UHGV virus genome: UHGV-1669857
Length of the DNA: 14,281 bases
Origin: a virus
Reading direction: 5' to 3' (one strand)
The notes below the pieces were generated by a model that was not told where the DNA came from, did not search any database, and saw only the letters and a program-made list of their open reading frames with translations. A program made the position numbers and the translations under genes. Below, piece by piece: positions 1 through 14,281 of this stretch (within the stretch, counting starts at the first letter, position 1; every line of letters starts with the position of its first letter).

Positions 1-157
1 CAGAATAGCGCTGAGGTCTGCCTCGTGAAGAAGGTGTTGCTGACTCATACCAGGCCTGAATAGCTTCATCATCCAGCCAGAAAGTTATGGAGCCACGGTT
101 GATGAGGGCTTTATTGTAGGTGGGCCAGTTGGTGATTTTGAACTTTTGCTTTGCCAC
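1..157 (-). CDS. IS903-family transposase, N-terminal fragment; continues beyond the window start. Start codon uncertain (GTG at 155-157 or TTG at 200-202).
   Basis: Minus-strand translation reads ...(V/M)AKQKFKITNWPTYNKALINRGSITFWLDDEAIQAWYESATPSSRGRPQRYS with no stop before position 1. It is not in the ORF track because it is truncated by the window edge. Confidence 0.7.
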   Translation of the reverse strand, partial: MAKQKFKITNWPTYNKALINRGSITFWLDDEAIQAWYESATPSSRGRPQRYS

Positions 158-234
158 GGAACGGTCTGCGTTGTCGGGAAGATACGTGATCTGATCCTTC
201 AACTCAGCAAAAGTTCGATTTATTCAACAAAGCC
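1..234 (-). mobile_element. Left end of an IS903-family (IS5 family) insertion sequence; the element body lies to the left of the window. Terminal inverted repeat at 217-234.
   Basis: Reverse complement of 217-234 is GGCTTTGTTGAATAAATC, which I recognise as the IS903 terminal inverted repeat. The adjacent minus-strand reading frame encodes a transposase N-terminus. Confidence 0.85.
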
Positions 235-261
235 CCTCCAGTGCTCCAGATATTGAATGGC

Positions 262-864
262 CTATGCCTCCGGCAGTTCAGGCCAGATGACATCCGGCGC
301 GGTGCTGGTATCTGTTGCCACCACCGCGTCAATGTAATCCAGCACAGCGTTAAGTCTGGTTGTTTCTTCCTGCGTAAGTTTACGTCCGGCCTGTAATTTC
401 AGCTGAATCAGACCGACGGAATTCATTGCTGCATCAATCAGTGACTGGCGTTGGATTTCTGCCGCGTCCACTGCGGCGCTACATTGTGCCTCAGTATCCG
501 TCACCCATTTCTCACCATCCCATTTATCGTATGGTGTTAACGGGGCGATAGTGGTTGTATTTTCGGGGTAATCACCCAGAGATGTGATTTCTTTCGATTC
601 TCCTGTTTCGGTGCTATAGACCGTTTCACCGCGATGGTCTGACACATATTCCCATGAGTTTAAATCTACCGTTCGGCAGATTGCATAACCAGCTTTGTTT
701 GAGCCAGGAGCATCTAAACAGGAATGCGCCGGAATACCGACACCCACAGCAAGATACTCAGTTGATGTGGAAATATATTCCCGCGTTTCTCCGTTGTAGT
801 TATAAACGGTAATGAAGCCGGGTTCCGTGGCAATAAATTCACTGTTTAATTTTACCTGTGTCAT
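262..864 (-). CDS. G: Tail fibre assembly protein (chaperone), P2 gpG-like
   Basis: 200-aa ORF directly downstream of the tail fibre gene with a 1-nt start/stop overlap. C-terminus ...VIWPELPEA is typical of Tfa-family chaperones. Confidence 0.85.
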   Translation of the reverse strand: MTQVKLNSEFIATEPGFITVYNYNGETREYISTSTEYLAVGVGIPAHSCLDAPGSNKAGYAICRTVDLNSWEYVSDHRGETVYSTETGESKEITSLGDYPENTTTIAPLTPYDKWDGEKWVTDTEAQCSAAVDAAEIQRQSLIDAAMNSVGLIQLKLQAGRKLTQEETTRLNAVLDYIDAVVATDTSTAPDVIWPELPEA

Positions 865-2102
865 TATGCAGCCCTCACAATGTAGTTAAATGCAATGTTG
901 CGGGGGCGCGTTTCATTTCCGCCGGTGTCGCCGGTATCTCTGCCTGCATTACCGGAATAGTCGTATACAGCGCCAGTCCCTCCCCCTGCGGCATAGCCTG
1001 TAAAAAACGTAAATGAGTGGTGGTGCGCTTTAAATAAATCGGACTGCGCCGAGAGAAGCGCGCGCCCTGCATCCACCCCGCGCCCATCATCCCATCCACG
1101 AATAAACTCACCGCGTAAATCAGGTAATTTATTTGTTGGATAAGCCTTTGCCAGTTCCGGGTATTCTTCAGCAGAAAATGCCGCACCATTGCATTTCAGC
1201 CAGCCTGTTGGAGGAGTGGCTGAAGGCCACGGAACAGGTACACCAACGGGTAACGCTGAGCCTTCTCCCAAACCAAGGTATGTGAGAAGACCAGCTACAT
1301 CCTTTCCACTCAAATGAGTCAGCGTATTGTCCAGCGGTTGTTTACCTGCCAGCGCATTGTTAATGGTGGTACTGAATTTCGGGTCATTGTTAATGGCTGC
1401 GGCAATTTCTTTCAGTGTATCCAGCGTGGCAGGCGCACCGTTAATCAGAGCGGTAATAGCAGCCTGTACAAACGCAGTGGTCGCAATCCGCGTGGTGTTA
1501 TTTCCTGCGGCAGGCGTCGGCGCTTTTGGTTCTCCGGTAAATGTCGGATTATGTTTCTGTGCATACTGGGTATGAGGATCCTGTGCGGCAATGTGGTTTC
1601 TCATCTGTTCATCCACATACAGCCTTAATTCCAGGACTTCATCATCCACGTATTTACGGGTCGCCAGTACCACCGATGGGTCGATTTTCAGCGTAATAGC
1701 TTCGGTATTCGTGACAACCAGAATCATGCGGATAGTCTGGGTACGACCACTGCCTTCCTGCAACTGCGGTTTGTACGTTTCCGGGCAGTTCGCCACCGCA
1801 ATGAGTACGCCTTCATCATCATAAAGCCCAATCTCACGGATCCAGAATCCGCCCTCGTTCTCAGGGATGATTTGCTCCGCAATAATCTGGCTCTGGTTGT
1901 TCGGGTCAACACTCAGAAGATTCAGCGGTGCAATGCGTTTCTGATTAATCAGTTTTGTCTGTGCCGGGTCTGGTGTCGGCAAGACACCATTCGCATCACC
2001 AACGGCCATTTGCGTCAGATTCAGCTTACTGCCGAGCATCGTCGCGTTAGCCAGCCGTGCCGCGCCCTGATTAGTCAGAATGGCGTAGTATTTCACTGTC
2101 AT
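864..2102 (-). CDS. H: Tail fibre protein, P2 gpH-like N-terminus with a tail-collar type C-terminal domain; short form (412 aa)
   Basis: N-terminus MTVKYYAILTNQGAARLANA... matches the conserved baseplate-attachment region of P2 H as I recall it. The C-terminal region (PWPSATPPTGWLKCNG...PDLRGEFIRGWDDGRG...KAHHHSF...NYIVRAA) resembles the phage tail collar domain. Confidence 0.85.
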   Translation of the reverse strand: MTVKYYAILTNQGAARLANATMLGSKLNLTQMAVGDANGVLPTPDPAQTKLINQKRIAPLNLLSVDPNNQSQIIAEQIIPENEGGFWIREIGLYDDEGVLIAVANCPETYKPQLQEGSGRTQTIRMILVVTNTEAITLKIDPSVVLATRKYVDDEVLELRLYVDEQMRNHIAAQDPHTQYAQKHNPTFTGEPKAPTPAAGNNTTRIATTAFVQAAITALINGAPATLDTLKEIAAAINNDPKFSTTINNALAGKQPLDNTLTHLSGKDVAGLLTYLGLGEGSALPVGVPVPWPSATPPTGWLKCNGAAFSAEEYPELAKAYPTNKLPDLRGEFIRGWDDGRGVDAGRALLSAQSDLFKAHHHSFTFFTGYAAGGGTGAVYDYSGNAGRDTGDTGGNETRPRNIAFNYIVRAA

Positions 2103-2710
2103 GCGTTTACTCTCAGGTTATCAATTAAATGAATGGCCGAGGCCGGGAAATAATCCCCTCCGACAATAATGGCCTCCGGGGTGTAGGGATAAACCGTCAG
2201 GGCGTCGCCGTGATAGCATCCCGCACCGGCAAAAATGTTGCCGGTTGTACTTAAACTGATAGCCAGTCCCGTCAGATGGCGGCTTGCCGGTTTTGCATCA
2301 GCAACGAGGCGCTCCAGCTCCTGATACATTTCCTCGGTAATACCCTGCTCAAGCACGCCAACAACGATGCGGAACGTCCCCGGCTCCTCGTTGAGCTGCC
2401 ACCACTCCCTCACCTCAATCAGATAGCCGAGCGGCTCCACCACACGCCGGATTGCGCCTATAGTGCCCTTATGGCAGTGAATGAAATACGCATCGCGGAT
2501 AACAGCGCGTTTTGTCGCTTCCGGCCACTTATCATCCCAGCGGTCAACCGAAAATGACCACGCCAGCCACGGCAGCAGATTTGCCGGGCAGGTGTCCGGG
2601 TTCCACAGCTTACGAATACTGACCGGCGTTTTTTCAATTTCCGCACAGGCTTTTGCGGCAGCGACTTCAAGCGGTGATGAGCCGGTCGGCAGCAGTCGCG
2701 AATCACTCAT
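2099..2710 (-). CDS. I: Baseplate assembly protein I (P2 gpI-like)
   Basis: Position between J and H. The start may be over-extended: the ORF is 203 aa against roughly 176 aa recalled for P2 I. Confidence 0.8.
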   Translation of the reverse strand: MSDSRLLPTGSSPLEVAAAKACAEIEKTPVSIRKLWNPDTCPANLLPWLAWSFSVDRWDDKWPEATKRAVIRDAYFIHCHKGTIGAIRRVVEPLGYLIEVREWWQLNEEPGTFRIVVGVLEQGITEEMYQELERLVADAKPASRHLTGLAISLSTTGNIFAGAGCYHGDALTVYPYTPEAIIVGGDYFPASAIHLIDNLRVNA

Positions 2711-3611
2711 CCGAGCCTCCGGTCACGACGCTGTATTCGGTACAGAAAGACGCCTGCGTATTGTTGAGCACGATGTCGGCCAGCGGTGCAGCCAGTTCGA
2801 CACGCTGCACGCCTTCCACATGCAAAGCGGCATAAATGGCAGACAGTCGGATGTCGCGCCCCAGCCGGTGCTGTGCCGTGATATACGCTTCCAGTTTTTT
2901 CACGGCGGCAGCGCGAATGGGTTCGCTTTCGGGGCCAGGATAAAGGTAAAGCGTGGCATTTATCTGGTATTCAACGATGACGGCAGACTGCACGGTCACA
3001 CGGTCGGCCACCGGTCTGACGTCCTCACCATTAAGGGCGTTGCGCACCACCGCCAGCAGGTCTTCGGATGCCACACCGTTATTTTCACGTGACAGCACAG
3101 AGATGGTGACGCAGGCCGGAGACGGACTGGTGACAGAAATATCCGCGACACGCCCGTCGGCACTGCGACCATGATACTGATAGGCTCCCACCGACCCGGC
3201 GACGCTTAAGCCCTCAAACGCCTGCTGAATACGCAGACGATAATCGGTGTCAGACTCCATCACTGCCGGTGTCGGCGGGATGGTCGAATCATCTGCCGGG
3301 GTGATAATCAGGCGCGTGGTGTTGTAATTGGCACCAATCACATCAAGGTCATTACCGGCGGCACAGGCCAGCATTACCGCCCGTGCGGCCTCATTCACAC
3401 GCTGACGCCAGATAAGCTCACGATAAGCATTTTCCTCCAGCAGTTTGACGAGAGGCTCGGATTCCAGCGTCAGGGTACGGGCAACCGCCTCCTGCTGGTC
3501 TTCCGGGTAAAGGGAAATCAGTGTCGCCTTGCGTTCGGCAAGAATGGTTTCAAAGTCCAGCTCCTCGACCACATCCGGTGCGGGTAGCTGGTTCAGGTCG
3601 ATAATCGGCAT
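2703..3611 (-). CDS. J: Baseplate assembly protein J (P2 gpJ-like)
   Basis: 302 aa, same length as P2 J; sits in the W-J-I order; 8-nt overlap with I. Confidence 0.9.
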   Translation of the reverse strand: MPIIDLNQLPAPDVVEELDFETILAERKATLISLYPEDQQEAVARTLTLESEPLVKLLEENAYRELIWRQRVNEAARAVMLACAAGNDLDVIGANYNTTRLIITPADDSTIPPTPAVMESDTDYRLRIQQAFEGLSVAGSVGAYQYHGRSADGRVADISVTSPSPACVTISVLSRENNGVASEDLLAVVRNALNGEDVRPVADRVTVQSAVIVEYQINATLYLYPGPESEPIRAAAVKKLEAYITAQHRLGRDIRLSAIYAALHVEGVQRVELAAPLADIVLNNTQASFCTEYSVVTGGSDE

Positions 3612-3615
3612 GGTT

Positions 3616-3963
3616 TCAACTCACAGGGATGGTTAACGAAAGTGGCTGGCCGGTGTCGCTGTGCTGGCCGGTTAACGTGACCGTCATTCGCCCGTCAAAA
3701 CTGCGCTCAGTGGTGACGGATGACAGGGTGACGCGGGGTTCCCATTTCAGCACCGCCATGTAACAGGCGACCTTAATCTGCAACTCAAGCGCCGGGGTCT
3801 GCGGCTGGTCAATCATTGACGCCAGCAATGAGCCGTAATCACGACGCATCACCCGTGAGCCGACCGGCGTGCGCAGGATATCGCCGATACTCTGGCTGAT
3901 ATGCTCAAGGTCAGTGACAGTCAGGCCATCACTGCGATTCATTCCAAGATAACGCGCTGTCAT
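3616..3963 (-). CDS. W: Baseplate wedge protein W (gp25-like)
   Basis: 115 aa, between V and J; 4-nt overlap with V. Confidence 0.9.
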   Translation of the reverse strand: MTARYLGMNRSDGLTVTDLEHISQSIGDILRTPVGSRVMRRDYGSLLASMIDQPQTPALELQIKVACYMAVLKWEPRVTLSSVTTERSFDGRMTVTLTGQHSDTGQPLSLTIPVS

Positions 3964-4595
3964 AGAGGACTCCCGGTTGTGCCGCCGCTGTCGCCGGGGT
4001 GTTTATGGGTATGCAGTACCTTACCGTTTGATGAGAGTTCACCGCCGGTATGTTTAATGTTGCCGCGCATCGTCCCGCCCTTCTGCACTTCCAGCGTGCC
4101 GGTAATCAGTCTGTTGGTGCAGACCACCTCCGGGGTGTCCAGGGTGATGCGGGTTGACGCTTTCACCATGACCACCGGCACCGTGGCAGTAACAGAATCA
4201 GAAGCCGTCACGCTGGCCGTTTTAATTCCGCTTACCGTGAGTGCACTGGTTTCGGGTTCATACTCAATCACCGCCCCGTCAGGGAAACGGATATGCAGGG
4301 CATCCGCCGACGTAGACGGCGCGGGGTTATCGCCGGAATAAATCCCCGGCAGAACGAACGCCGTGTCGAGTTCACCGCCCACGGCCAGAATCAGCACCTG
4401 TTCCCCCACGGAAGGTGCCCACCATGTGCGCGAACGTCCGGCGCGATGGGTCAGCCACTGAAGCCAGTCGGTGCACATGCCGCCGGTCTGCACACGGCAG
4501 CGACCGGCGTTAAGGTCGGTTTCGACGATAATGCCGGTGCGGATCATGTTGCGCAGTGCGCGCGCGAGTTCCTGAATATTTGCGAGAGTGTTCAT
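3960..4595 (-). CDS. V: Baseplate central spike protein V
   Basis: 211 aa, same length as P2 V; Gly/Thr/His-rich C-terminal apex ...HTHKHPGDSGGTTGSPL. The Shine-Dalgarno sequence is weak. Confidence 0.9.
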   Translation of the reverse strand: MNTLANIQELARALRNMIRTGIIVETDLNAGRCRVQTGGMCTDWLQWLTHRAGRSRTWWAPSVGEQVLILAVGGELDTAFVLPGIYSGDNPAPSTSADALHIRFPDGAVIEYEPETSALTVSGIKTASVTASDSVTATVPVVMVKASTRITLDTPEVVCTNRLITGTLEVQKGGTMRGNIKHTGGELSSNGKVLHTHKHPGDSGGTTGSPL

Positions 4596-4661
4596 AACGG
4601 GAAGGATGCCGCCGGGTCATACCGGCGGCAATGTGCCGATGAGGTGTCGGGAATGGCACAA

Positions 4662-5114
4662 CTAACGGTCGAGGTGAGCCAGGATAATCTCTTCAATCAT
4701 CTGCACATCCTCACCGGTAAAGCCGAGCAGAGGACGCGCCGGATAATCAATTTTCTTACCGTCTTTCCGGTTTTCTTCCGACAGACCGAACTGATGCACA
4801 CTGGCGATTTTCGGCGACTTCCCGCCGTAAAACTCCATTGATGCCTGCTCCGGGCTGGCGCGGATATGCAAAAAACGACTGGTGATAAGTTTCGCAAACA
4901 TTTTTCGCTTAACGCGACCGGTCTTTTTTCTGGCGCTCTGCTGCTGGCGTGGCACGTAGGGTGTGCCGTCCGGGGCTTTCTGTGCCATCACCCGACGCTG
5001 CTGACTCTGCCGCAGACGTTTCGCCAGTTCGGCACTCAGTCGTCGACGCCCTGACGGTGACAGCGACTCAATCAGTCCGGTCAGCCGGTCTTCAAAACGC
5101 TTAAACTCATTCAT
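4662..5114 (-). CDS. S: Tail completion protein S
   Basis: 150 aa; 8-nt overlap with R; P2 gene order. Confidence 0.9.
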   Translation of the reverse strand: MNEFKRFEDRLTGLIESLSPSGRRRLSAELAKRLRQSQQRRVMAQKAPDGTPYVPRQQQSARKKTGRVKRKMFAKLITSRFLHIRASPEQASMEFYGGKSPKIASVHQFGLSEENRKDGKKIDYPARPLLGFTGEDVQMIEEIILAHLDR

Positions 5115-5574
5115 CCCACTTGCTCACCAGTTCGCCATTGATATAAAGCTCCATCGGGCGGGTGACCGGCTCCGGCGGCGTGGGTTCCGGGATATTCTTC
5201 ACATGCAGCGCGCCGTCCACCTCACTGACCAGCGTGCGCTCGGTCAGCATCAGGCTGATGCTGATATCAAAGCTGCTGTCATTGTTGATGTCTGCATAAA
5301 ACGTGAAGCCCTTTTTCTGACCTTCGTCAGTGGTCATGATGTCGGGCTGATTTTCCCGCAGCCACGCCAGCACCGGCACGATGAGCAGGTCAAAATCACC
5401 GGTAAAGTCGGTCACAATCACATTGAGCGTGTAACGCTTTTCGAACGACAGCGACGTCGCCAGCGTGGAGGCAATACTCCCGTTATCCACGAATATCCGA
5501 AGCATCTCTGGACTGGTTTTCAGCACCGTGACGGCATCAGTCAGCGCCCTGCGCAGGCTGTCGGGTTTGAGCAT
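5107..5574 (-). CDS. R: Tail completion protein R
   Basis: 155 aa; directly follows the lysis cassette as in P2. Confidence 0.9.
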   Translation of the reverse strand: MLKPDSLRRALTDAVTVLKTSPEMLRIFVDNGSIASTLATSLSFEKRYTLNVIVTDFTGDFDLLIVPVLAWLRENQPDIMTTDEGQKKGFTFYADINNDSSFDISISLMLTERTLVSEVDGALHVKNIPEPTPPEPVTRPMELYINGELVSKWDE

Positions 5575-5827
5575 CGTTTTCGTCCTGACAGTGTTTAATC
5601 ATTTTTACCTGGCTGGCACAGCGTGCCAGCGCGTTCTCAAGCTGCCGGATATCAGCACTTAAATCGCCGTTCGTCTCCGGGTCACTGCCCGGCATCGGGC
5701 AAAGGCTCACTTTCGGGCAGGCGTTGGCGACAATCACTGGCGTCGGTGCAGGCCGGGCGCTGGTGCAACCGGCGCACAGCATCAGGCAGGTCAGCACCGT
5801 ACCAGCGGCGAAAATCTTCGTTTTCAT
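5537..5827 (-). CDS. lysC: LysC, outer-membrane lipoprotein spanin (Rz1-like), nested out of frame in the 3' part of lysB and running into R
   Basis: N-terminus MKTKIFAAGTVLTCLMLCAGC carries a signal peptide and an LCAGC lipobox. The ORF is embedded in lysB in another frame, which is the P2 arrangement. Confidence 0.75.
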   Translation of the reverse strand: MKTKIFAAGTVLTCLMLCAGCTSARPAPTPVIVANACPKVSLCPMPGSDPETNGDLSADIRQLENALARCASQVKMIKHCQDENDAQTRQPAQGAD

Positions 5828-6107
5828 TCAGTAACCTCGTGATGGTTTTCTCGCGCTGTGCTTCACGCTTCGCGGCGTTTTCCAGCTCCTGACGCAGTGC
5901 CACCTGCGCCAGCTCGTTTTTGTCTGCCCTGGTGAGGGCAACATGAAGCTGATTTTTCAGCATGGTGATGGTCGTCTGCTGCCCGCTGGCGACGTTATTC
6001 GCCCTGTCCAGCGAGGCGCGCAGGCTGGCATTTTTGTGTTTCACCAGAAACAGACCGGACACCGCCAGCGATAACAACACGACCAGCACAATCATCAGCT
6101 TTGACAT
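5682..6107 (-). CDS. lysB: LysB, inner-membrane spanin (Rz-like)
   Basis: 141 aa with an N-terminal transmembrane helix (MSKLMIVLVVLLSLAVSGLFLV) followed by a charged, probably coiled-coil region. Confidence 0.85.
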   Translation of the reverse strand: MSKLMIVLVVLLSLAVSGLFLVKHKNASLRASLDRANNVASGQQTTITMLKNQLHVALTRADKNELAQVALRQELENAAKREAQREKTITRLLNENEDFRRWYGADLPDAVRRLHQRPACTDASDCRQRLPESEPLPDAGQ

Positions 6108-6520
6108 GGTTCCCGCCCCTCAAAACGCTGACGGCAGGCCGTGCGTATCAGCCGGAAAAACAGTGACGCCACGAGATAAATCAGCGCGGTAAAAATCCAT
6201 CCGGCGGCGACCAGCGAGATAAATGTCGCCACCATCACCACCAGAGCCGCCGCCCGTCTGCGCCACGGCACCGGCTGCAAAAACAGCGACGTGACAATCT
6301 TCACGGCCAGCGATTCCGGCGGCAGCTCCCGCCCGTAGCGTTCCAGCACATACTCCGTGGCATACACGCCGACACCACCGGCAACCACACAGATAACCGT
6401 CGCCAGAATCGCCCAGGCAGCGACAAAACTGACGGCCACGCTCTGCGGGTAAATCAGGGACAGTGCCAGCATCAGCGCCAGCGACACGTTCAGCATCAGT
6501 GAAAGGGATAATTTCTTCAT
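6095..6520 (-). CDS. lysA: LysA, multi-pass membrane lysis-timing protein (putative antiholin)
   Basis: 141 aa, strongly hydrophobic with several predicted transmembrane segments; located between K and lysB. Confidence 0.85.
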   Translation of the reverse strand: MKKLSLSLMLNVSLALMLALSLIYPQSVAVSFVAAWAILATVICVVAGGVGVYATEYVLERYGRELPPESLAVKIVTSLFLQPVPWRRRAAALVVMVATFISLVAAGWIFTALIYLVASLFFRLIRTACRQRFEGREPCQS

Positions 6521-6534
6521 GGTGTTTACTCCGT

Positions 6535-7032
6535 TTAAGCCGGTACGCCGCCAGCGGTACGCCAGACGGTGACCAGTTTTTCCAGTGAATGCTCACGCTG
6601 ACCGTAACCGGCACCCGGCAGGGACGCCCAGATATTGCGACAGCGTGAAATGGCGCGCTCAATGCGTCCCGCCCGGATGTCATCCAGTGCACCGCGTTCG
6701 CGGATCAACTGAATGGCAAGTCTGTCCTGTGACAACGGACTGAAATCCGGCAGGGCAAGCTGTTTGCGGTAATGCGGCCAGAACAGGTAAAGCTGCTGAT
6801 AGCGACCGGAGGCCGTGGATTTTTCACCGCGACGGTTAAACACCTTCGCCGGTCGGCCATGTGCGAACGGGTGGTCACTGTAGTCGGTGAAAATTTCCGG
6901 CTTCCCGTCCAGTCCGGTGACTATCACGTCATAGCCCCGGTTTTTCGTCAGCGGATGGTTTGCCGTCCCTTCGGACACGGCCAGCATGTCGAGAAAGGCG
7001 GCGATATTCTGATGCGTGTTAATAACCGGCAT
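6535..7032 (-). CDS. K: Endolysin (lysozyme-like murein hydrolase), P2 gpK-like
   Basis: 165 aa; immediately downstream of holin Y with a 1-nt overlap. Confidence 0.9.
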   Translation of the reverse strand: MPVINTHQNIAAFLDMLAVSEGTANHPLTKNRGYDVIVTGLDGKPEIFTDYSDHPFAHGRPAKVFNRRGEKSTASGRYQQLYLFWPHYRKQLALPDFSPLSQDRLAIQLIRERGALDDIRAGRIERAISRCRNIWASLPGAGYGQREHSLEKLVTVWRTAGGVPA

Positions 7033-7313
7033 TACGGTTTCCCCCTGCCCTTAAAGCGGCGCTGAATGGCAATCTCAATCACCTGATAACCGGCGATACC
7101 CAGCATGGAGCCGATACCGCACACCGCAGGCAGTGACAGGTCAGGAAACTGCACCAGAACAACACCGGCAACCATCGAGACAAAACCACCGAGCAACATG
7201 CGCCCGATAAACAGACGCGGGGTGATGGGTTCACCACCGGCAAGCACCTTGCCGACAACAATCAGCACCCCAATCATGAAAAGCGACAGGACGCTTTTTT
7301 CTTCTGCTGTCAT
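7032..7313 (-). CDS. Y: Holin, P2 gpY-like
   Basis: 93 aa small membrane protein with hydrophobic helices and a charged C-terminus (RRFKGRGKP). Confidence 0.9.
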   Translation of the reverse strand: MTAEEKSVLSLFMIGVLIVVGKVLAGGEPITPRLFIGRMLLGGFVSMVAGVVLVQFPDLSLPAVCGIGSMLGIAGYQVIEIAIQRRFKGRGKP

Positions 7314-7316
7314 GCG

Positions 7317-7520
7317 TTACTCCCACAGATTGACAGTTTCAGCCACGGGCGCGGTCTGAACGTCGGGCAGTTCGACGGCGGTGCCGTGTGGCAGCACCGC
7401 ACCCAGTTCAGCCAGTCCCGGATTTGCGGCGAGCACGGTCTCAACCACGCCCTCAGTGCGCCCGTAATACCGGACACAAATGGCGTCGAGCGTGTCGCCC
7501 TGTAGCGCAAAGGTCTTCAT
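7317..7520 (-). CDS. X: Tail protein X (LysM-like)
   Basis: The track ORF (7317-7589) is over-extended. The internal ATG at 7518-7520 (MKTFALQGDTLDAICVRYYG...) gives 67 aa and forms an ATGA overlap with the stop of L. Confidence 0.85.
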   Translation of the reverse strand: MKTFALQGDTLDAICVRYYGRTEGVVETVLAANPGLAELGAVLPHGTAVELPDVQTAPVAETVNLWE

Positions 7521-8029
7521 CAGATTTGACTCACGATGCAGCGCGGCTTGTCCTGGATGCGCGCCACTGCCCAGCGCATATCCCGCCACAGCTCATCAAT
7601 GGTGCTGTCAATGCTGTCGGCCTTCTTGTCGCCTTTCGCACTGGCATCCACACCGCGATAACGTTCATAAAGCGACGCGGTCGCCATCGCACACACGGCG
7701 CGCTCGTAGTAAAAAACTTTGATGCTTTCACCGTCGATGTCGTCCGCCGGGACGTCCGCCAGACGCGTAAAACCGGCGGCAATTTTCTGTTCGCGGTACT
7801 CGTACAGCTCCGCATTCGTCTCCGCCATGCCTGACTTGATGGCCTCACGCAGACGGGCGGGGGCGACGGTCTGCTCAAGGCGCATACGTTCCCGGACGCG
7901 CTTCGGGTCGATATCGGGAAAAAAGAACGTGTTTTTAATCACCGGCTCGTCGCCTGCCGGTTGCGGGATGACCACCGTACCCTCACCGGACACGGGAGCC
8001 TCCTTTCGCGGAATAATCAGCGTCATCAT
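7520..8029 (-). CDS. L: Head completion/stabilisation protein L
   Basis: The track ORF is over-extended. The start at 8027-8029 (MMTLIIPRKEAP...) is preceded by GAGG 8 nt upstream and gives 169 aa, the P2 L length. Confidence 0.9.
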   Translation of the reverse strand: MMTLIIPRKEAPVSGEGTVVIPQPAGDEPVIKNTFFFPDIDPKRVRERMRLEQTVAPARLREAIKSGMAETNAELYEYREQKIAAGFTRLADVPADDIDGESIKVFYYERAVCAMATASLYERYRGVDASAKGDKKADSIDSTIDELWRDMRWAVARIQDKPRCIVSQI

Positions 8030-8128
8030 GACTACCTCTGAAAAGTCGGGCGGTGGACGCCGGTGCAGTGTCAGGTGATTCACCCTCACTGACCGGCGTG
8101 CCGCCCTGGCGCGGGGCGCATTCGGTTG

Positions 8129-8866
8129 TTAACTGGCTTTCTTTTTCGGGCGTCCACGTTTTGCCGGGGGCGCACTCCGGGTCTTACGCGGGGCGCGGGT
8201 GACCGCTTTTGGCTCCGGCTTCGGTTTCAGCTCCCGCTCCAGTCGTTCAATCTCTTTTTTGACGCCTGCCTGACAGTCGAGCTGTGTCGCACGTTGCAGA
8301 TGCGCCAGCGCCCCTGCGGCATCACCAGCGTCACGCAGAAACAGACCGGTGATTTTGTGCAGCTTTGCGCGCACTTCATCAGGCATGTCAGCCGTGGCGG
8401 TCAGTTCAAGGGTCTCCGTCAGCAGGCGGGTATCCACAGACTCACCGGCAGCGTGAGCGCGCATGGCCGCAAGCGCGACCTCCTCGGTGAACATGTACGG
8501 CGGGGTACGGCGGTGTTTACCCGGCATGGTCAGACCGTACTTCAGGGCATAACGGGCAATCTCCAGCGCACCGGCAATATCGCCGGTATCCAGACGCCAC
8601 AGCATGACCGTCATCAGAATGTCATCCTGTGCACCTTTGCCCTGCTCCAGCACGCCGTTCACCCACGACAACCAGAACGGCAGCAGTTCGCGTTTTTTCG
8701 CGGCCTTCAGCTCTTTTGAATAAATCGCTTTCAGTGTGCGCTGGTCTGCGGCGAGCTTAACCAGCATCTGCTCATAGACAGTTGCATGTCGCAGCGGGGC
8801 GGCTTCCCGCTGCGCGGTCATCGCTGCCGAGACCCGCATCATGTGGCGCTGTGCGGGACTCGTCAT
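8129..8866 (-). CDS. M: Terminase small (endonuclease) subunit M
   Basis: 245 aa with a basic Lys/Arg/Pro-rich C-terminal tail; sits between N and L. Confidence 0.9.
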   Translation of the reverse strand: MTSPAQRHMMRVSAAMTAQREAAPLRHATVYEQMLVKLAADQRTLKAIYSKELKAAKKRELLPFWLSWVNGVLEQGKGAQDDILMTVMLWRLDTGDIAGALEIARYALKYGLTMPGKHRRTPPYMFTEEVALAAMRAHAAGESVDTRLLTETLELTATADMPDEVRAKLHKITGLFLRDAGDAAGALAHLQRATQLDCQAGVKKEIERLERELKPKPEPKAVTRAPRKTRSAPPAKRGRPKKKAS

Positions 8867-8869
8867 CGG

Positions 8870-9943
8870 TTACGCTCCCGGCTCTGCGGTCGCTTTAGCC
8901 AGTGTGGAGAAATCACCGACCTTAATTTTTTCCACCAGACAACCGGCGGCGTAGTCTTCCACCACGTAATCAATGTTCATTGACTCGTAGTTCTCCACGC
9001 GGTCGAGTTTCGGGTTTTCCTCAATCACGCGGCGATGGCTGTCATCCATGTAGTAGATGGACAGGTTTTCCAGCTTTGTGATGAGCATCGCATCCGCCGG
9101 GAAGTACGGGACGCGTACCGCCGGCAGGTTACCGATGCGTTTCTGGCTGATGATGACGTCAGCGGCCAGCATTTCGCTGTTGTCCTGCTCCTTGTTGACG
9201 ATGGGAAAATACTTGTCCGCCAGTAGCTGACGTCCCACAATCACCACAAGGTCAGGGTCTTCCTGATACCACGGCTCAATCAGGTTGTTGGTCGCATCCA
9301 TCACCAGTGCGTCAAGGCTGGCATAATCACCGCCCTTACCCACGCGGATAACCTCAGAGGTGGTGTGCCCTTCCTCGTCAGTGACCTTGCTCATCACGCG
9401 CGCCGGTGCTTCATTGCGGTATTTCTGCAGCCAGCCGACCGCCACATCCTGTAGCATCGGATTACTGCTGCGGTCAGAGGTTTCGGCACGCCTCACGCCG
9501 TTAAAACCGGCCATGATGAAATCAAGGGACTGGCGTTTGATAATGGCGTTACGGACACGGAGCTGGAAATCCTGATAACGCGCCCACAGGTCAAGCGTTT
9601 TGTAGCGGATATAAAAATCGAAGTTAATCTGGTCGCATTCGTACTTGTTTGACGCCAGCTTCGAGAAGTCCTTCGGCTGACGCTCGGTGCCACCGGCGGT
9701 GTCGCTGGTGCTGGCGATGGAGCCGGTGACACCAATACCAATTTTTTCCCCTTTCATTTCGCTGACCGGCACAATGTTGATGCGGGTCAGAAAGTCAGAG
9801 GACTCCTGCATGGTGTTCATCAGGGTCTGGGTGACCGACGGTTCAACGGTGAATTTTTTCGACACATCACCGGCGTCGATGCCGTTCAGTTCGGCAACAC
9901 GGGACAGGTAGGCATTAAATTTAAAGCGGGTTTCCTGGCGCAT
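8870..9943 (-). CDS. N: Major capsid protein N
   Basis: 357 aa, the P2 N length as I recall it; order O-N-M. Confidence 0.95.
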   Translation of the reverse strand: MRQETRFKFNAYLSRVAELNGIDAGDVSKKFTVEPSVTQTLMNTMQESSDFLTRINIVPVSEMKGEKIGIGVTGSIASTSDTAGGTERQPKDFSKLASNKYECDQINFDFYIRYKTLDLWARYQDFQLRVRNAIIKRQSLDFIMAGFNGVRRAETSDRSSNPMLQDVAVGWLQKYRNEAPARVMSKVTDEEGHTTSEVIRVGKGGDYASLDALVMDATNNLIEPWYQEDPDLVVIVGRQLLADKYFPIVNKEQDNSEMLAADVIISQKRIGNLPAVRVPYFPADAMLITKLENLSIYYMDDSHRRVIEENPKLDRVENYESMNIDYVVEDYAAGCLVEKIKVGDFSTLAKATAEPGA

Positions 9944-10001
9944 AGTTTTTCCTGAAATTAAGGGTTAATCGTGAAGGTTTTCCCGGACTGACTGACGCCG
10001 G

Positions 10002-10856
10002 TTAGCAGTTCGTCATCAGGGCGTCACCGCCACCGCCGGTGGCTTTACTGCGGCGCTGCTGGGTCAGACTTTCGGTGTGGTCGAGACTGTTTTTCAGGCG
10101 GGTGAATGCCTGACTGGTTTCATCCGCCCTGTCAGTCACATCCTGCTTAAGTGCGGAAAAGGCGGTTTCCATCTCAGCAAGGCGCTGCTCAGTGGCGCTC
10201 AGTTTTTCCTGCACATGCTCAGCGACAGCGGTCACCGCTTCATGCACGTCATTCAGACGGGCGTCATCGCTGGCCTGTTTGCGGCCAAAAATGGATTTCA
10301 CCTTTTCGGTCAGGGCTGTGAACACGGTTTCAGGCAGGTCTTCAAATTCCAGCTCAACAGGCGTTGCCACTGAAATCAGGTTTTCAGGGCTTAATTTGAA
10401 GCGGTTCAGGGGGTTGTGTTTTGCCGTGCGGCAGAATTCCAGGTATTCCGTGCCGAGGCTTGCCGGGTCATCGGTGACGGCCAGACCCACCAGATAACAT
10501 TTGCCGGTATTGGCAAAGTTCGGCTGAATTTCCATTGAGGTATAGACCTTCTGCGCGGCCTTGTTCATCGCGATAAGGTCATCGGTCGGGGTGATTTTCG
10601 CAAACAGCGCCCATTTGCCTTTCAGCGCCGAATCGTCGTCAATCTTTTCGGCCTTCAGTTCGGCCACATCACCATAACGTTTAAAAATACCGTCAGGCAG
10701 GATGCCGCGCAGATGTTCCAGGTTAATGCGGCAACCATAGACTCGCGGGTCAAAGGTTTCGGCCATTTCCTGAATATCCTGCGCACTGATGACACGCCCG
10801 TCACAGGTGTCACCCTCAACGCCGATACGAAAGAATTTTGAGACTTTTTTTGCCAT
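10002..10856 (-). CDS. O: Capsid scaffolding protein O
   Basis: The track ORF (to 10922) is over-extended. The ATG at 10854-10856 (MAKKVSKFFRIGVEG...) gives 284 aa with AGGA upstream. Confidence 0.9.
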   Translation of the reverse strand: MAKKVSKFFRIGVEGDTCDGRVISAQDIQEMAETFDPRVYGCRINLEHLRGILPDGIFKRYGDVAELKAEKIDDDSALKGKWALFAKITPTDDLIAMNKAAQKVYTSMEIQPNFANTGKCYLVGLAVTDDPASLGTEYLEFCRTAKHNPLNRFKLSPENLISVATPVELEFEDLPETVFTALTEKVKSIFGRKQASDDARLNDVHEAVTAVAEHVQEKLSATEQRLAEMETAFSALKQDVTDRADETSQAFTRLKNSLDHTESLTQQRRSKATGGGGDALMTNC

Positions 10857-11029
10857 TGTCAGGAGTCCTGAATAGTGATTAGAGGAGTCACATGTCGGCA
10901 TCAGTTTCCCGACGATGCGCATCCTCCGCCATCAGTCCCGGATGGCTTATCACTGACACAACAGCACCTTAGCGAATCGCGGGGCGCGACTAAGTAGCCT
11001 TGCCGTGTATTCATCACGGCGAGGTATTC
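10857..11029. promoter_or_regulatory. Divergent late-promoter region (leftward for the O operon, rightward for P-Q), expected to be Ogr-type activator dependent
   Basis: 173-bp non-coding spacer between divergently transcribed O and P, corresponding to the known P2 late-promoter location. I did not find an exact TGT-N12-ACA activator dyad by eye. Confidence 0.5.
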
Positions 11030-12802
11030 ATGACCATCACCACAGACACCACTCTTTTACACGACCCGCGTCGTCAGGCGGCGCTGCTGTACTGGCAGGG
11101 GTTTTCCGTGCCGCAGATTGCCGCCATGTTGAAGATGAAACGCCCGACGGTGCAGAGCTGGAAACAGCGCGACGGCTGGGACAGTGTTGCCCCCATCAGC
11201 CGTGTCGAAATGAGTCTGGAAGCGCGGCTGACCCAGCTCATCATCAAACCGCAGAAAACCGGCGGTGACTTCAAGGAAATTGACCTGCTGGGACGCCAGA
11301 TTGAACGACTGGCACGGGTTAACCGTTACAGTCAGACCGGCAACGAGGCAGACCTTAATCCGAACGTCGCTAACCGCAACAAAGGCGGGCGGCGCAAACC
11401 GAAAAAGAATTTTTTCAGTGACGAGGCCATCGAAAAGCTGGAGCAGATTTTCTTTGAGCAGTCTTTCGAATATCAGTTGCACTGGTATCGCGCCGGGCTT
11501 GAGCACCGCATCCGCGATATCCTGAAATCCCGCCAGATTGGCGCGACGTTTTATTTTTCCCGCGAGGCGCTGCTGCGCGCCCTGAAAACCGGCCATAACC
11601 AGATTTTTCTGTCGGCCAGTAAAACGCAGGCGTATGTGTTCCGTGAATACATCATCGCCTTTGCCCGTCTGGTTGACGTTGACCTGACCGGTGACCCGAT
11701 TGTCCTGGGCAATAACGGCGCAAAACTGATTTTTCTCGGCACCAACTCCAATACCGCGCAGAGCCATAACGGCGACCTGTACGTCGACGAGATTTTCTGG
11801 ATCCCGAATTTTCAGGTACTGCGTAAGGTGGCATCAGGTATGGCCTCACAGAGCCACCTGCGCTCGACCTATTTCTCCACCCCGTCCACGCTGGCGCACG
11901 ACGCCTACCCGTTCTGGTCGGGTGAACTGTTCAACCGGGGACGCGCCAGCGCCGCCGAACGCGTGGAAATCGACGTCAGTCATAACGCCCTTGCCGGAGG
12001 TCTTCTCTGTGCGGACGGCCAGTGGCGACAGATTGTCACCATTGAGGACGCCCTGAAAGGCGGCTGCACGCTGTTCGACATTGAGCAGCTCAAACGCGAA
12101 AACAGCGCCGACGATTTTAAAAACCTGTTCATGTGTGAATTTGTTGACGACAAGGCGTCGGTGTTCCCGTTCGAGGAGCTGCAACGCTGCATGGTCGACA
12201 CGCTGGAAGAATGGGAAGACTATGCGCCGTTTGCCGCCAATCCGTTCGGCTCCCGCCCGGTATGGATTGGTTACGACCCGTCACACCGTGGCGACAGCGC
12301 CGGATGCGTGGTGCTGGCACCGCCGGTGGTGGCCGGAGGTAAATTCAGAATACTTGAGCGTCACCAGTGGAAAGGCATGGACTTTGCCACTCAGGCGGAA
12401 TCCATCCGCAAACTCACCGAAAAATACAACGTCGAATACATCGGAATTGATGCCACCGGCCTCGGTGTCGGCGTGTTCCAGCTCGTGCGCTCGTTCTATC
12501 CCGCCGCGCGCGACATCCGCTACACGCCGGAAATGAAAACCGCAATGGTGCTCAAGGCCAAAGACGTTATCCGCCGTGGCTGTCTGGAATATGACGTCAG
12601 CGCCACCGACATCACCAGCTCGTTTATGGCTATCCGCAAGACCATGACCAGCAGCGGACGCAGTGCCACCTATGAGGCCAGCCGCAGCGAGGAAGCCAGC
12701 CACGCCGACCTCGCCTGGGCGACCATGCACGCCCTGTTAAATGAGCCACTCACCGCCGGTATCAGCACCCCGCTGACATCCACCATTCTGGAGTTTTACT
12801 GA
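11030..12802 (+). CDS. P: Terminase large (ATPase) subunit P
   Basis: The track ORF begins at a TTG at 11000. The real start is the ATG at 11030 (MTITTDTTLLHDPRRQ...) with GAGG 6 nt upstream, giving 590 aa. Confidence 0.95.
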   Translation: MTITTDTTLLHDPRRQAALLYWQGFSVPQIAAMLKMKRPTVQSWKQRDGWDSVAPISRVEMSLEARLTQLIIKPQKTGGDFKEIDLLGRQIERLARVNRYSQTGNEADLNPNVANRNKGGRRKPKKNFFSDEAIEKLEQIFFEQSFEYQLHWYRAGLEHRIRDILKSRQIGATFYFSREALLRALKTGHNQIFLSASKTQAYVFREYIIAFARLVDVDLTGDPIVLGNNGAKLIFLGTNSNTAQSHNGDLYVDEIFWIPNFQVLRKVASGMASQSHLRSTYFSTPSTLAHDAYPFWSGELFNRGRASAAERVEIDVSHNALAGGLLCADGQWRQIVTIEDALKGGCTLFDIEQLKRENSADDFKNLFMCEFVDDKASVFPFEELQRCMVDTLEEWEDYAPFAANPFGSRPVWIGYDPSHRGDSAGCVVLAPPVVAGGKFRILERHQWKGMDFATQAESIRKLTEKYNVEYIGIDATGLGVGVFQLVRSFYPAARDIRYTPEMKTAMVLKAKDVIRRGCLEYDVSATDITSSFMAIRKTMTSSGRSATYEASRSEEASHADLAWATMHALLNEPLTAGISTPLTSTILEFY

Positions 12803-13836
12803 TGAGCAAGAAAAAAGGGAAAACACCGCAACCTGCGGCCAAAAAAATGACCGCCAGCGCCCCGAAAATGGAAGCATTCACCTTTGGCGAGCCGGTACCG
12901 GTACTCGACCGCCGTGACATTCTGGATTACGTCGAGTGCATCAGTAACGGCAGATGGTATGAACCACCGGTCAGCTTTACCGGTCTGGCAAAAAGCCTGC
13001 GTGCTGCCGTGCATCACAGCTCACCGATTTACGTCAAACGTAATATTCTGGCCTCAACATTTATCCCGCATCCGTGGCTTTCCCAGCAGGATTTCAGCCG
13101 CTTTGTGCTGGATTTTCTGGTGTTCGGTAATGCGTTTCTGGAAAAGCGTTACAGCACCACCGGTAAGGTCATCAGACTGGAAACCTCACCGGCAAAATAT
13201 ACCCGTCGTGGCGTGGAGGAGGATGTTTACTGGTGGGTGCCGTCCTTCAACGAGCCGACACCTTTCACGCCCGGCTCCGTGTTTCACCTGCTGGAGCCGG
13301 ATATCAATCAGGAGCTGTACGGCCTGCCAGAATATCTGAGCGCCCTTAACTCTGCCTGGCTGAATGAGTCGGCCACGCTGTTCCGCCGCAAGTATTACGA
13401 AAACGGCGCTCATGCCGGATATATCATGTACGTCACCGATGCCGTGCAGGACCGCAACGATATCGAAATGCTTCGCGAAAACATGGTTAAGTCGAAAGGC
13501 CGCAACAACTTTAAAAATCTGTTTCTCTATGCCCCGCAGGGGAAAGCTGACGGCATTAAAATTATCCCGCTCAGTGAAGTGGCAACGAAGGACGATTTTT
13601 TTAATATCAAAAAAGCCAGCGCCGCTGACCTGCTGGACGCGCACCGCATCCCCTTTCAGTTGATGGGCGGCAAGCCGGAGAACGTCGGGTCACTGGGCGA
13701 TATTGAGAAAGTGGCAAAGGTCTTTGTCCGCAATGAGCTTATCCCGTTACAGGACAGGATTCGGGAAATAAACGGCTGGCTCGGTCAGGAGGTCATCCGC
13801 TTTAAAAACTACTCACTGGACACTGACAACGGCTGA
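12802..13836 (+). CDS. Q: Portal protein Q
   Basis: 344 aa; ATGA overlap with the stop of P; the gene next to cos, as in P2. Confidence 0.95.
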   Translation: MSKKKGKTPQPAAKKMTASAPKMEAFTFGEPVPVLDRRDILDYVECISNGRWYEPPVSFTGLAKSLRAAVHHSSPIYVKRNILASTFIPHPWLSQQDFSRFVLDFLVFGNAFLEKRYSTTGKVIRLETSPAKYTRRGVEEDVYWWVPSFNEPTPFTPGSVFHLLEPDINQELYGLPEYLSALNSAWLNESATLFRRKYYENGAHAGYIMYVTDAVQDRNDIEMLRENMVKSKGRNNFKNLFLYAPQGKADGIKIIPLSEVATKDDFFNIKKASAADLLDAHRIPFQLMGGKPENVGSLGDIEKVAKVFVRNELIPLQDRIREINGWLGQEVIRFKNYSLDTDNG

Positions 13837-13841
13837 ACATC

Positions 13842-13863
13842 GCCGCCTGCGGGCGGCTTTTTT
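13842..13863 (+). terminator. Rho-independent terminator downstream of Q
   Basis: GCCGCC-TGCG-GGCGGC stem-loop (13842-13857) followed by TTTTTT (13858-13863), 6 nt after the Q stop codon. Confidence 0.8.
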
Positions 13864-14005
13864 ACACCCCGTCATCACGCCCTCACACGCTCACCACAGC
13901 ACAAAACATCCCGCAAACACACCAACACCCCAACGGGCAGACTAAACGCCGCCACGACGCGCTCAGACGCTGAAAAAATAAAATCAGCACCACCGCCAGC
14001 GCGCA

Positions 14006-14024
14006 GTGCTTTCCCCGCCTCGCC
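14006..14024. other. P2-type cos site: 19-nt cohesive-end sequence
   Basis: Plus strand GTGCTTTCCCCGCCTCGCC, whose reverse complement GGCGAGGCGGGGAAAGCAC is the P2 cohesive end as I recall it; sits about 170 bp beyond Q, as in P2. Confidence 0.8.
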
Positions 14025-14166
14025 CGCCCGCTTCATGGGTCGGTTTGAATGCAGTTGAATTACAACTACCAAACCAAGCAATCCCTACTATTACGCAGAA
14101 AATGCATACTGAAATACCTCGTGCAAATTGATGCAGCTAAGTATGCATAGGTTTTATGCCTCAACG

Positions 14167-14281
14167 GGCTTTGTTGAATAAATCAGATTTCGGGTAAGTC
14201 TCCCCCGTAGCGGGTTGTGTTTTCAGGCAATACGCACGCTTTCAGGCATACCTGCTTTCGTCATTTTGTTCAGCGCTCGTA
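14167..14281 (-). mobile_element. End of a second IS903-family insertion sequence (the end nearest the transposase C-terminus); element body lies to the right of the window. Terminal inverted repeat at 14167-14184.
   Basis: Plus strand 14167-14184 is GGCTTTGTTGAATAAATC, the same inverted repeat as at 217-234 in opposite orientation. The minus strand encodes a transposase C-terminus. Confidence 0.85.
14223..14281 (-). CDS. IS903-family transposase, C-terminal fragment; enters from beyond the window end
   Basis: Minus-strand translation ...RALNKMTKAGMPESVRIA then stop at 14223-14225, matching the IS903 transposase C-terminus as I recall it. Confidence 0.7.
   Translation of the reverse strand, partial: RALNKMTKAGMPESVRIA

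Follow-up and report, generated by a model that had tools for sequence, protein, structure and literature searches.

IS903B ends flank the late-gene arm and cos region of a P2-like prophage

Results

Gene content of the window

The DNA analysed here (the window; 14,281 nt, UHGV-1669857) is one complete short-read metagenome contig and, judged from its gene content and order, is the late-gene arm, from a tail-fibre assembly gene to the portal gene Q, together with the cos site of a P2-like (Peduovirus) prophage (Table 1). The arm runs reversed relative to the standard P2 map, with the tail-fibre gene H followed by I, J, W, V, S, R, the lysis genes, X, L, M, N and O, all on the minus strand, and with terminase gene P and then portal gene Q, both on the plus strand, closing the late-gene order before cos. 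The P2-type assignments come from Pfam matches (GPO, P2 capsid, terminase, portal, baseplate J/W/V and others) on an identical scaffold. Each of the late genes called on that scaffold, deposited at ENA, is full length (19/19), P and Q are full length in the ORF list of the window, and the terminase genes M and P are intact in the window. Neither an Rfam scan nor a tRNA scan revealed an RNA gene in the window.

Table 1 Features of the window, with positions on the 14,281-nt stretch and offsets counted from cos
Feature	Position	Strand	Basis or remark
Left IS903B end: IRL and N-terminal part of the transposase	1-234	-	Exact IR; runs off the window start
18-bp terminal repeat GGCTTTGTTGAATAAATC, left copy (IRL)	217-234	-	Exact
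tfa' 3' remnant (alternative tail-fibre assembly gene); last 17 codons and stop at 237-290	235-290	+	Translation
Tail-fibre assembly gene	262-864	-	ORF list
Tail fibre H, 412 aa	864-2102	-	ORF list
Portal gpQ, 344 aa, last late gene before cos	12802-13836	+	ORF; PF04860 Phage_portal; P2 Q position
Terminator-like hairpin and T-run, P2 tQ equivalent	13842-13867	+	Terminator scan
68-aa ORF crossing cos	13875-14081	-	Probably spurious
Terminator-like hairpin and T-run abutting the Q side of cos	13987-14002	-	Conserved in relatives
cos core, P2-type cohesive-end 19-mer GGCGAGGCGGGGAAAGCAC	14006-14024	-	Single exact match
Cargo-side cos flank CGCCCGCTTCATGGGTCGGTTTGAATGCAGTTG	14025-14057	.	Common to P2, P4 and all relatives examined
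Phage DNA between cos and IS, 142 bp	14025-14166		Last phage base 14166
Three phased TGCA boxes	14122-14125, 14132-14135, 14144-14147	.	+98, +108, +120
Predicted 9-bp IS903B target GCCTCAACG	14158-14166	.	Junction read directly; second copy expected past the IS
Right IS903B end: IRR and last 18 transposase codons, stop 14223-14225	14167-14281	-	Exact IR; starts at +143
18-bp terminal repeat GGCTTTGTTGAATAAATC, right copy (IRR)	14167-14184	+	Exact

The exact gpQ protein is very common in E. coli prophages (4538 blocks), and 1392 complete E. coli genomes hold most of the late arm of the window. The 412-aa tail-fibre H is rare, the versions of relatives being 428-444 aa long, and the exact protein is recorded on two contigs only, both of 10-20 kb; outside H, the late arm shares ~97% identity with prophages common in E. 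coli. This identity, the one basis of the host assignment, suggests that the host was E. coli or a close relative.

Two IS903B ends in direct orientation

Both ends of the window lie inside an insertion sequence. The 18-bp terminal repeat is exact at both positions (chance expectation 0.01), and the window start agrees (234/234) with the final 234 nt of the 1057-bp IS903B copy annotated in E. coli EC9952, which RefSeq lists at the equivalent place as 'IS5-like element IS903B family transposase'. The right end is identical to the same element at 114/115 positions and to the IS of E. coli strain 4114 at 115/115. Translation of the left end gives the N-terminus of the IS903B transposase (...KQKFKITNWPTYNKALINRG...) and that of the right end its C-terminus (...RALNKMTKAGMPESVRIA*; ...MTKAGMPESVRIA*). 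By these matches the element is IS903B, a 1057-bp IS of the IS5 family (IS903 group) that is multi-copy in Enterobacteriaceae; the terminal repeats and transposase termini match those of known copies, with 99-100% identity over the 349 nt of the two ends, whereas the window holds only the two ends and the annotated copies are full 1057-bp elements. Since the transposase is on the minus strand at both ends, the two IS copies are direct repeats. The IS903-type end that the initial annotation had placed 142 bp from cos was thus borne out, with an exact terminal repeat that begins on the base after the last phage base.

An uninterrupted relative reads ...GCCTCAACG followed directly by TATACGTTATC... 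at the right junction. The 9 bp inside the segment differ between the two junctions (CCTCCAGTG on the left, GCCTCAACG on the right), and the related IS903-group copies in EC9952 and strain 4114 are each 1057 bp long with 9-bp duplications.

At the left junction, the window encodes SSAPDIEWPMPPAVQAR*, matching the C-terminal end of tfa' (148 aa) in E. coli 30EVA1, so that the left IS903B cuts tfa' 17 codons before its stop. The tfa' gene belongs to the invertible tail-fibre segment, which is of the Cin/Hin type; the genes for the invertase, tail sheath and tail tube are expected past the left IS, outside the contig.

One of the two contigs with the exact H protein, an ENA metagenome scaffold (scaffold_1906, ERZ28596799, sample SAMEA104142363, 14040 bp), showed 0 mismatches to the window over the 11923 nt compared and, judged by its length, corresponds to window positions 180-14219, so that its ends lie 55 and 53 nt inside the IS. 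Two assemblies that each halt a k-mer's length inside the same element indicate repeat-induced contig breaks: both contig ends are assembly breaks inside IS903B, and the assemblies stop at both copies because IS903B is multi-copy in Enterobacteriaceae. The IS portion alone matches at least 5000 plasmid records. A contig that ends in an IS says nothing on the loss of genes beyond it.

The right phage-IS junction, searched as an exact sequence, was absent from species-representative genomes, JGI metagenome contigs and IMG/VR, and the whole window with an identical junction was found neither in 72,556 PLSDB plasmids nor in 5,426 complete E. coli genomes, where the best matches were ~97% identical.

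A conserved cos module that extends into the cargo side

The cos 19-mer occurs once in the window with 0 mismatches (0/200 shuffles match) and equals the annotated cosL/cosR of P2 (NC_001895) and the end of P4. It lies ~170 nt past the Q stop, with the terminator in between, and the same Q-terminator-cos spacing is seen in P2 (cos 1-19, tQ 160-181, Q 187-1221). About 16 (15-16) cos regions were compared with the 19-mer as anchor: those of the window, of P2 and of P4, of eleven prophages in E. coli chromosomes or plasmids, and of four phages recorded from Escherichia, Yersinia or Salmonella hosts. The Q side is conserved throughout the P2-like sequences but not in P4. The cargo side is conserved from +1 to ~+33 in all of them including P4, no fewer than 13 of the 15 sequences agreeing at most positions from +1 to +29, and is unalignable between cargo types from +37 to +95. 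The flank of the window agrees with the consensus of P2, P4 and their relatives for the right end.

Beyond the unalignable stretch, TGCA or a one-base variant recurs at +97-99, +107-109 and +117-121 in ~13 distinct flanks that otherwise do not align, P2 and P4 included. An exact TGCA lies within one base of +98 in 10 of the 13 distinct flanks against a chance expectation of ~0.012 per flank (3-position window), and this recurrence is therefore not due to chance. The boxes are present in P2 (L016/L015), P4 (L017), L001, L003-L010, L014 and L018-L023. Spaced about one helical turn apart, they may be a distal component of the signal that terminase recognises. An apparent hairpin at 14103-14148 was considered as a terminator and rejected, as it merely consists of the TGCA boxes. 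Because the boxes are kept across ~13 unalignable cargo flanks, the 'variable' hotspot would really start only after ~+125, and IS or cargo insertions may be tolerated only beyond that point, with the TGCA boxes setting the true inner boundary of the hotspot.

The minimal P2/P4 cos is ~125 bp. The homology between P2 and P4 at cos is cited in PMC9594776 as '55-bp'; secondary sources add that transduction improves with longer flanks. In the window the IS starts 19 nt past the last TGCA box, and the whole conserved module is present. As the insertion splits no coding sequence and leaves the module whole, a P2-type terminase (gpM/gpP) should still recognise and cut this cos. The suggestion of the initial annotation that packaging recognition may survive is hence reasonable, but it had relied on the Q-side flank, and the flank that matters is the one on the cargo and IS side, the elements of which are intact.

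Two further features adjoin the core. The 68-aa ORF that crosses cos would be split in virion DNA, and its counterparts are annotated as 'hypothetical protein' in some records (for example 69 aa in L006 and L011). The hairpin on the Q side of cos could halt transcripts that run from the cargo/gpA side across cos.

The cos-proximal hotspot and its probable cargo

The interval between gpA and gpQ, beside cos, is described as a defence hotspot by Rousset et al. 2022 (PMC9122126), and transposable elements are stated to be almost absent from the cos-adjacent hotspots of P2-like and P4-like elements in NAR 2026 (PMC13586616). In P2 (NC_001895) tin and old occupy 30684-33380, adjoining cosR, in the interval between gene A/orf91 and cosR. 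Ten prophages with a portal identical to that of the window carry differing cargo at the hotspot, for example a DEAD helicase, a DNA methylase, FRG with a reverse transcriptase, or an M78 peptidase; further phages carry VbhT, ParaMORC (ParaMORC3) or DprA. The placing of the old/tin cargo position in the right arm of P2 next to cos thus agrees with the reference record, the hotspot literature and the varied cargo of these ten prophages.

The window holds the hotspot position and a cargo-specific flank, and neither the cargo nor gpA lies within it. The 142 bp after cos are identical (142/142) to E. coli 30EVA1, in which the sequence goes on TATACGTTATC... and a minus-strand gene of 610 aa, whose stop codon lies 10 nt beyond the point at which the IS begins in the window, is followed by gpA. 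The 610-aa protein matches PF24098 DUF7380 (4e-39) and the PADLOC candidate PDC-S39 (2e-84), and weakly DUF4209 (20 bits, under the 22.3-bit cut-off), which is presented in PMC3710099 as a domain of the HEPN superfamily. A query made of the flank plus this gene was covered by at least 80% in 55/55 matching complete E. coli genomes, and none of the complete E. coli genomes matching it had the flank without the DUF7380 gene. Because the flank is always accompanied by this gene in the 55 genomes, the sequence points to a window lineage of the DUF7380/DUF4209 (PDC-S39 candidate) cargo type and not of the old/tin type. The old and tin genes, named initially as the cargo of this position in P2, are therefore not what the retained 142-bp flank points to; it is the flank of prophages carrying the DUF7380/DUF4209 gene. 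It had also been proposed that any cargo is outside the window, separated from cos by an IS, or gone; any cargo must indeed lie outside the window, but 'gone' and 'beyond the IS' are indistinguishable, the contig ends being assembly breaks.

The window and P2 share the 19-mer, the order P, Q, terminator, cos and cargo, the flank of ~33 nt and TGCA at +98/+108/+120. In P2 old and tin are transcribed away from cos and the interval has no IS, whereas the flank type of the window is linked to a DUF7380/DUF4209 gene that reads towards cos, and cos is separated from the cargo position by IS903B. Compared with the P2-like and P4-like hotspots of PMC9122126 and PMC13586616, which occupy the same gpQ/cos-gpA position, the window is a rare IS-bearing case in which the cargo is not visible.

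IS insertions near cos in other prophages

A search of 5,426 complete E. coli genomes was performed using a chimeric query (the cos region joined to either IS end), and showed an IS903-group end within ~700 bp of a P2-like cos in four strains. EC9952 and 23CRST029, which represent one event, carry it at +158 from cos (duplication TCGTTTGGG) and strain 4114 at +96 (duplication TTTTTTACA), in each case in the same orientation as in the window; in T16R an IS903B end lies within ~400 bp of cos, the opposite way round and farther from cos than in the window. In all of them the IS is of the same group and on the same side of cos as in the window. Target sequences and cargo flanks differ, and on this ground the insertions in EC9952/23CRST029, 4114, T16R and the window are independent events. 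Such insertions are rare (~4 strains against 1392 genomes with most of the late arm), in agreement with the near absence of transposable elements stated for these hotspots (PMC13586616). An orientation bias of IS903 near cos was considered and dropped, as three of the four independent events being the same way round is not significant, and so was a target bias, GCCTCAACG (predicted), TCGTTTGGG and TTTTTTACA having no common motif.

The insertions differ in their position relative to the conserved module. In the window and in EC9952 the IS lies past the TGCA boxes, whereas in strain 4114 it lies between the cos core and the boxes. The 4114 element (L014 6282-7338, NZ_CP071328.1) is a 1057-bp IS903-group copy at +96, and the boxes resume right after it; its cos, as read from this arrangement, is probably packaging-dead. 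The same prophage also carries ISEc12 in gpO, a scaffold gene.

ISEc12 (IS21-like) recurs in E. coli P2-like prophages at varied positions (L001 5578-7880, L003 15208-17510, L011, L012 5439-7741 and L014 468-2770) and was commoner than IS903B in the small sample examined.

Plasmid matches were examined as well. IncC KPC plasmids matching 235-14067 were considered as carriers of an IS-bounded fragment and rejected, since they hold a complete P2-like prophage with no IS903B junction. One of these, pEC316_KPC (L018, NZ_CP018956.1; IncC, E. coli), has a reverse-transcriptase cargo at the cos hotspot and ~97% late-arm identity, and ~12 more plasmids of 120-216 kb (Klebsiella, E. coli, Enterobacter, Citrobacter and Providencia) give the same late-arm match.

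Discussion

The window is most probably a P2-like late arm with its cos, bounded on both sides by IS903B, the right copy having transposed into the spacer between cos and cargo. This short spacer would have had the cos recognition module on one side and the 3' end of the cargo gene on the other. The IS903B transposase makes 9-bp target duplications, here predicted to be of GCCTCAACG, and the insertion point falls between the last TGCA box (19 nt) and the stop of the DUF7380/DUF4209 gene (10 nt, as placed in uninterrupted relatives), so that no coding sequence is split and the cos module is left whole. A simple insertion predicts that the far side of the right IS reads IRL ...TTCGATTTATTCAACAAAGCC, then GCCTCAACG, then TATACGTTATCAAACAG..., where the DUF7380 gene ends; for a simple insertion on the left, the predicted order is the tfa' 5' portion, CCTCCAGTG and the IRR end GGCTTTGTTGAATAAATCAG.

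What lies past the right IS is a separate matter, and simple insertion, with the cargo gene and gpA retained, appears to have a somewhat better than even chance. The main competing account is a decayed prophage in which one or both IS903B copies mark deletions that removed the cargo, gpA and the early region and orphaned the 13.9-kb late arm with its cos, between two IS copies, in a chromosome or plasmid. Both segment ends abut direct-orientation IS copies, as it would require; the inner 9 bp differ, so that the duplication cannot be checked, and IS-disrupted P2-like prophages are common among the relatives (ISEc12 in L001, L003, L011, L012 and L014). Neither junction, however, splits an essential gene, the right one being in the intergenic DNA that separates the cos module from a stop codon and the left one lying in the silent tfa', and the ends of random deletions in a phage that is ~90% coding would seldom fall in this way. 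Every late gene called on the segment is intact, and the comparable IS903-group copies examined in complete genomes (3/3) are simple insertions with 9-bp duplications. A deletion remnant is thus possible, though doubtful. A phage that received two simple insertions and may still be viable is modestly favoured: a related complete prophage of ~30.5 kb would with two IS reach ~32.6 kb, which is under the 33.6 kb of P2, and this, together with the full-length late genes and the lack of a split essential gene, makes such a phage plausible.

The complementary IRL and IRR of an IS in a single orientation at the two ends are also what would be expected of one IS on a circle of ~15 kb (13,932 + 1,057 bp), or of a composite-transposon-like unit with a packageable cos. 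Any multi-copy IS yields the same picture in a short-read assembly, however, and genes for replication or maintenance are lacking from the segment; the differing 9-bp junction sequences are moreover at odds with a single insertion into a circle. Neither the 72,556 plasmids nor the 5,426 E. coli genomes yielded a late arm bounded by IS903B, the best matches among the plasmids being complete prophages that lack this junction, and this arrangement is very unlikely. It is more improbable still that the phage-IS junction is chimeric and absent from any genome: the window does come from a short-read metagenome assembly with both ends in a repeat, but two assemblies of differing length share identical junctions, and phage sequence gives way to IS sequence precisely where the terminal repeat begins, as in real insertions, and not within shared sequence.

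The direct IS903B pair has only a slim chance of making the 13.9-kb cos-bearing segment mobilisable, as an IS-IS circle or composite transposon, into plasmids or other replicons. If it did, resident P2-like phages could package the recipient replicons, and hotspot cargo otherwise regarded as devoid of transposable elements could be exchanged through IS homology.

The case is that of a known IS in a known, non-essential and permissive spacer of a known phage family; it is an ordinary insertion, of little weight in itself, and not a new kind of element. The positional rule at cos, with TGCA boxes to ~+125, may be the sole mildly new material, and may perhaps be found in older literature. The practical lesson is that a contig end in an IS repeat should not count as loss of the adjoining genes. 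IS-bearing hotspots are among the few places in which transposon-mediated exchange of cargo can be examined. For P2-like phages and P4 satellites, the conserved cos module reaches ~125 nt into the cargo side, which would give a simple packaging rule for insertions and deletions near cos: the module is intact in the window and in EC9952, and split in strain 4114.
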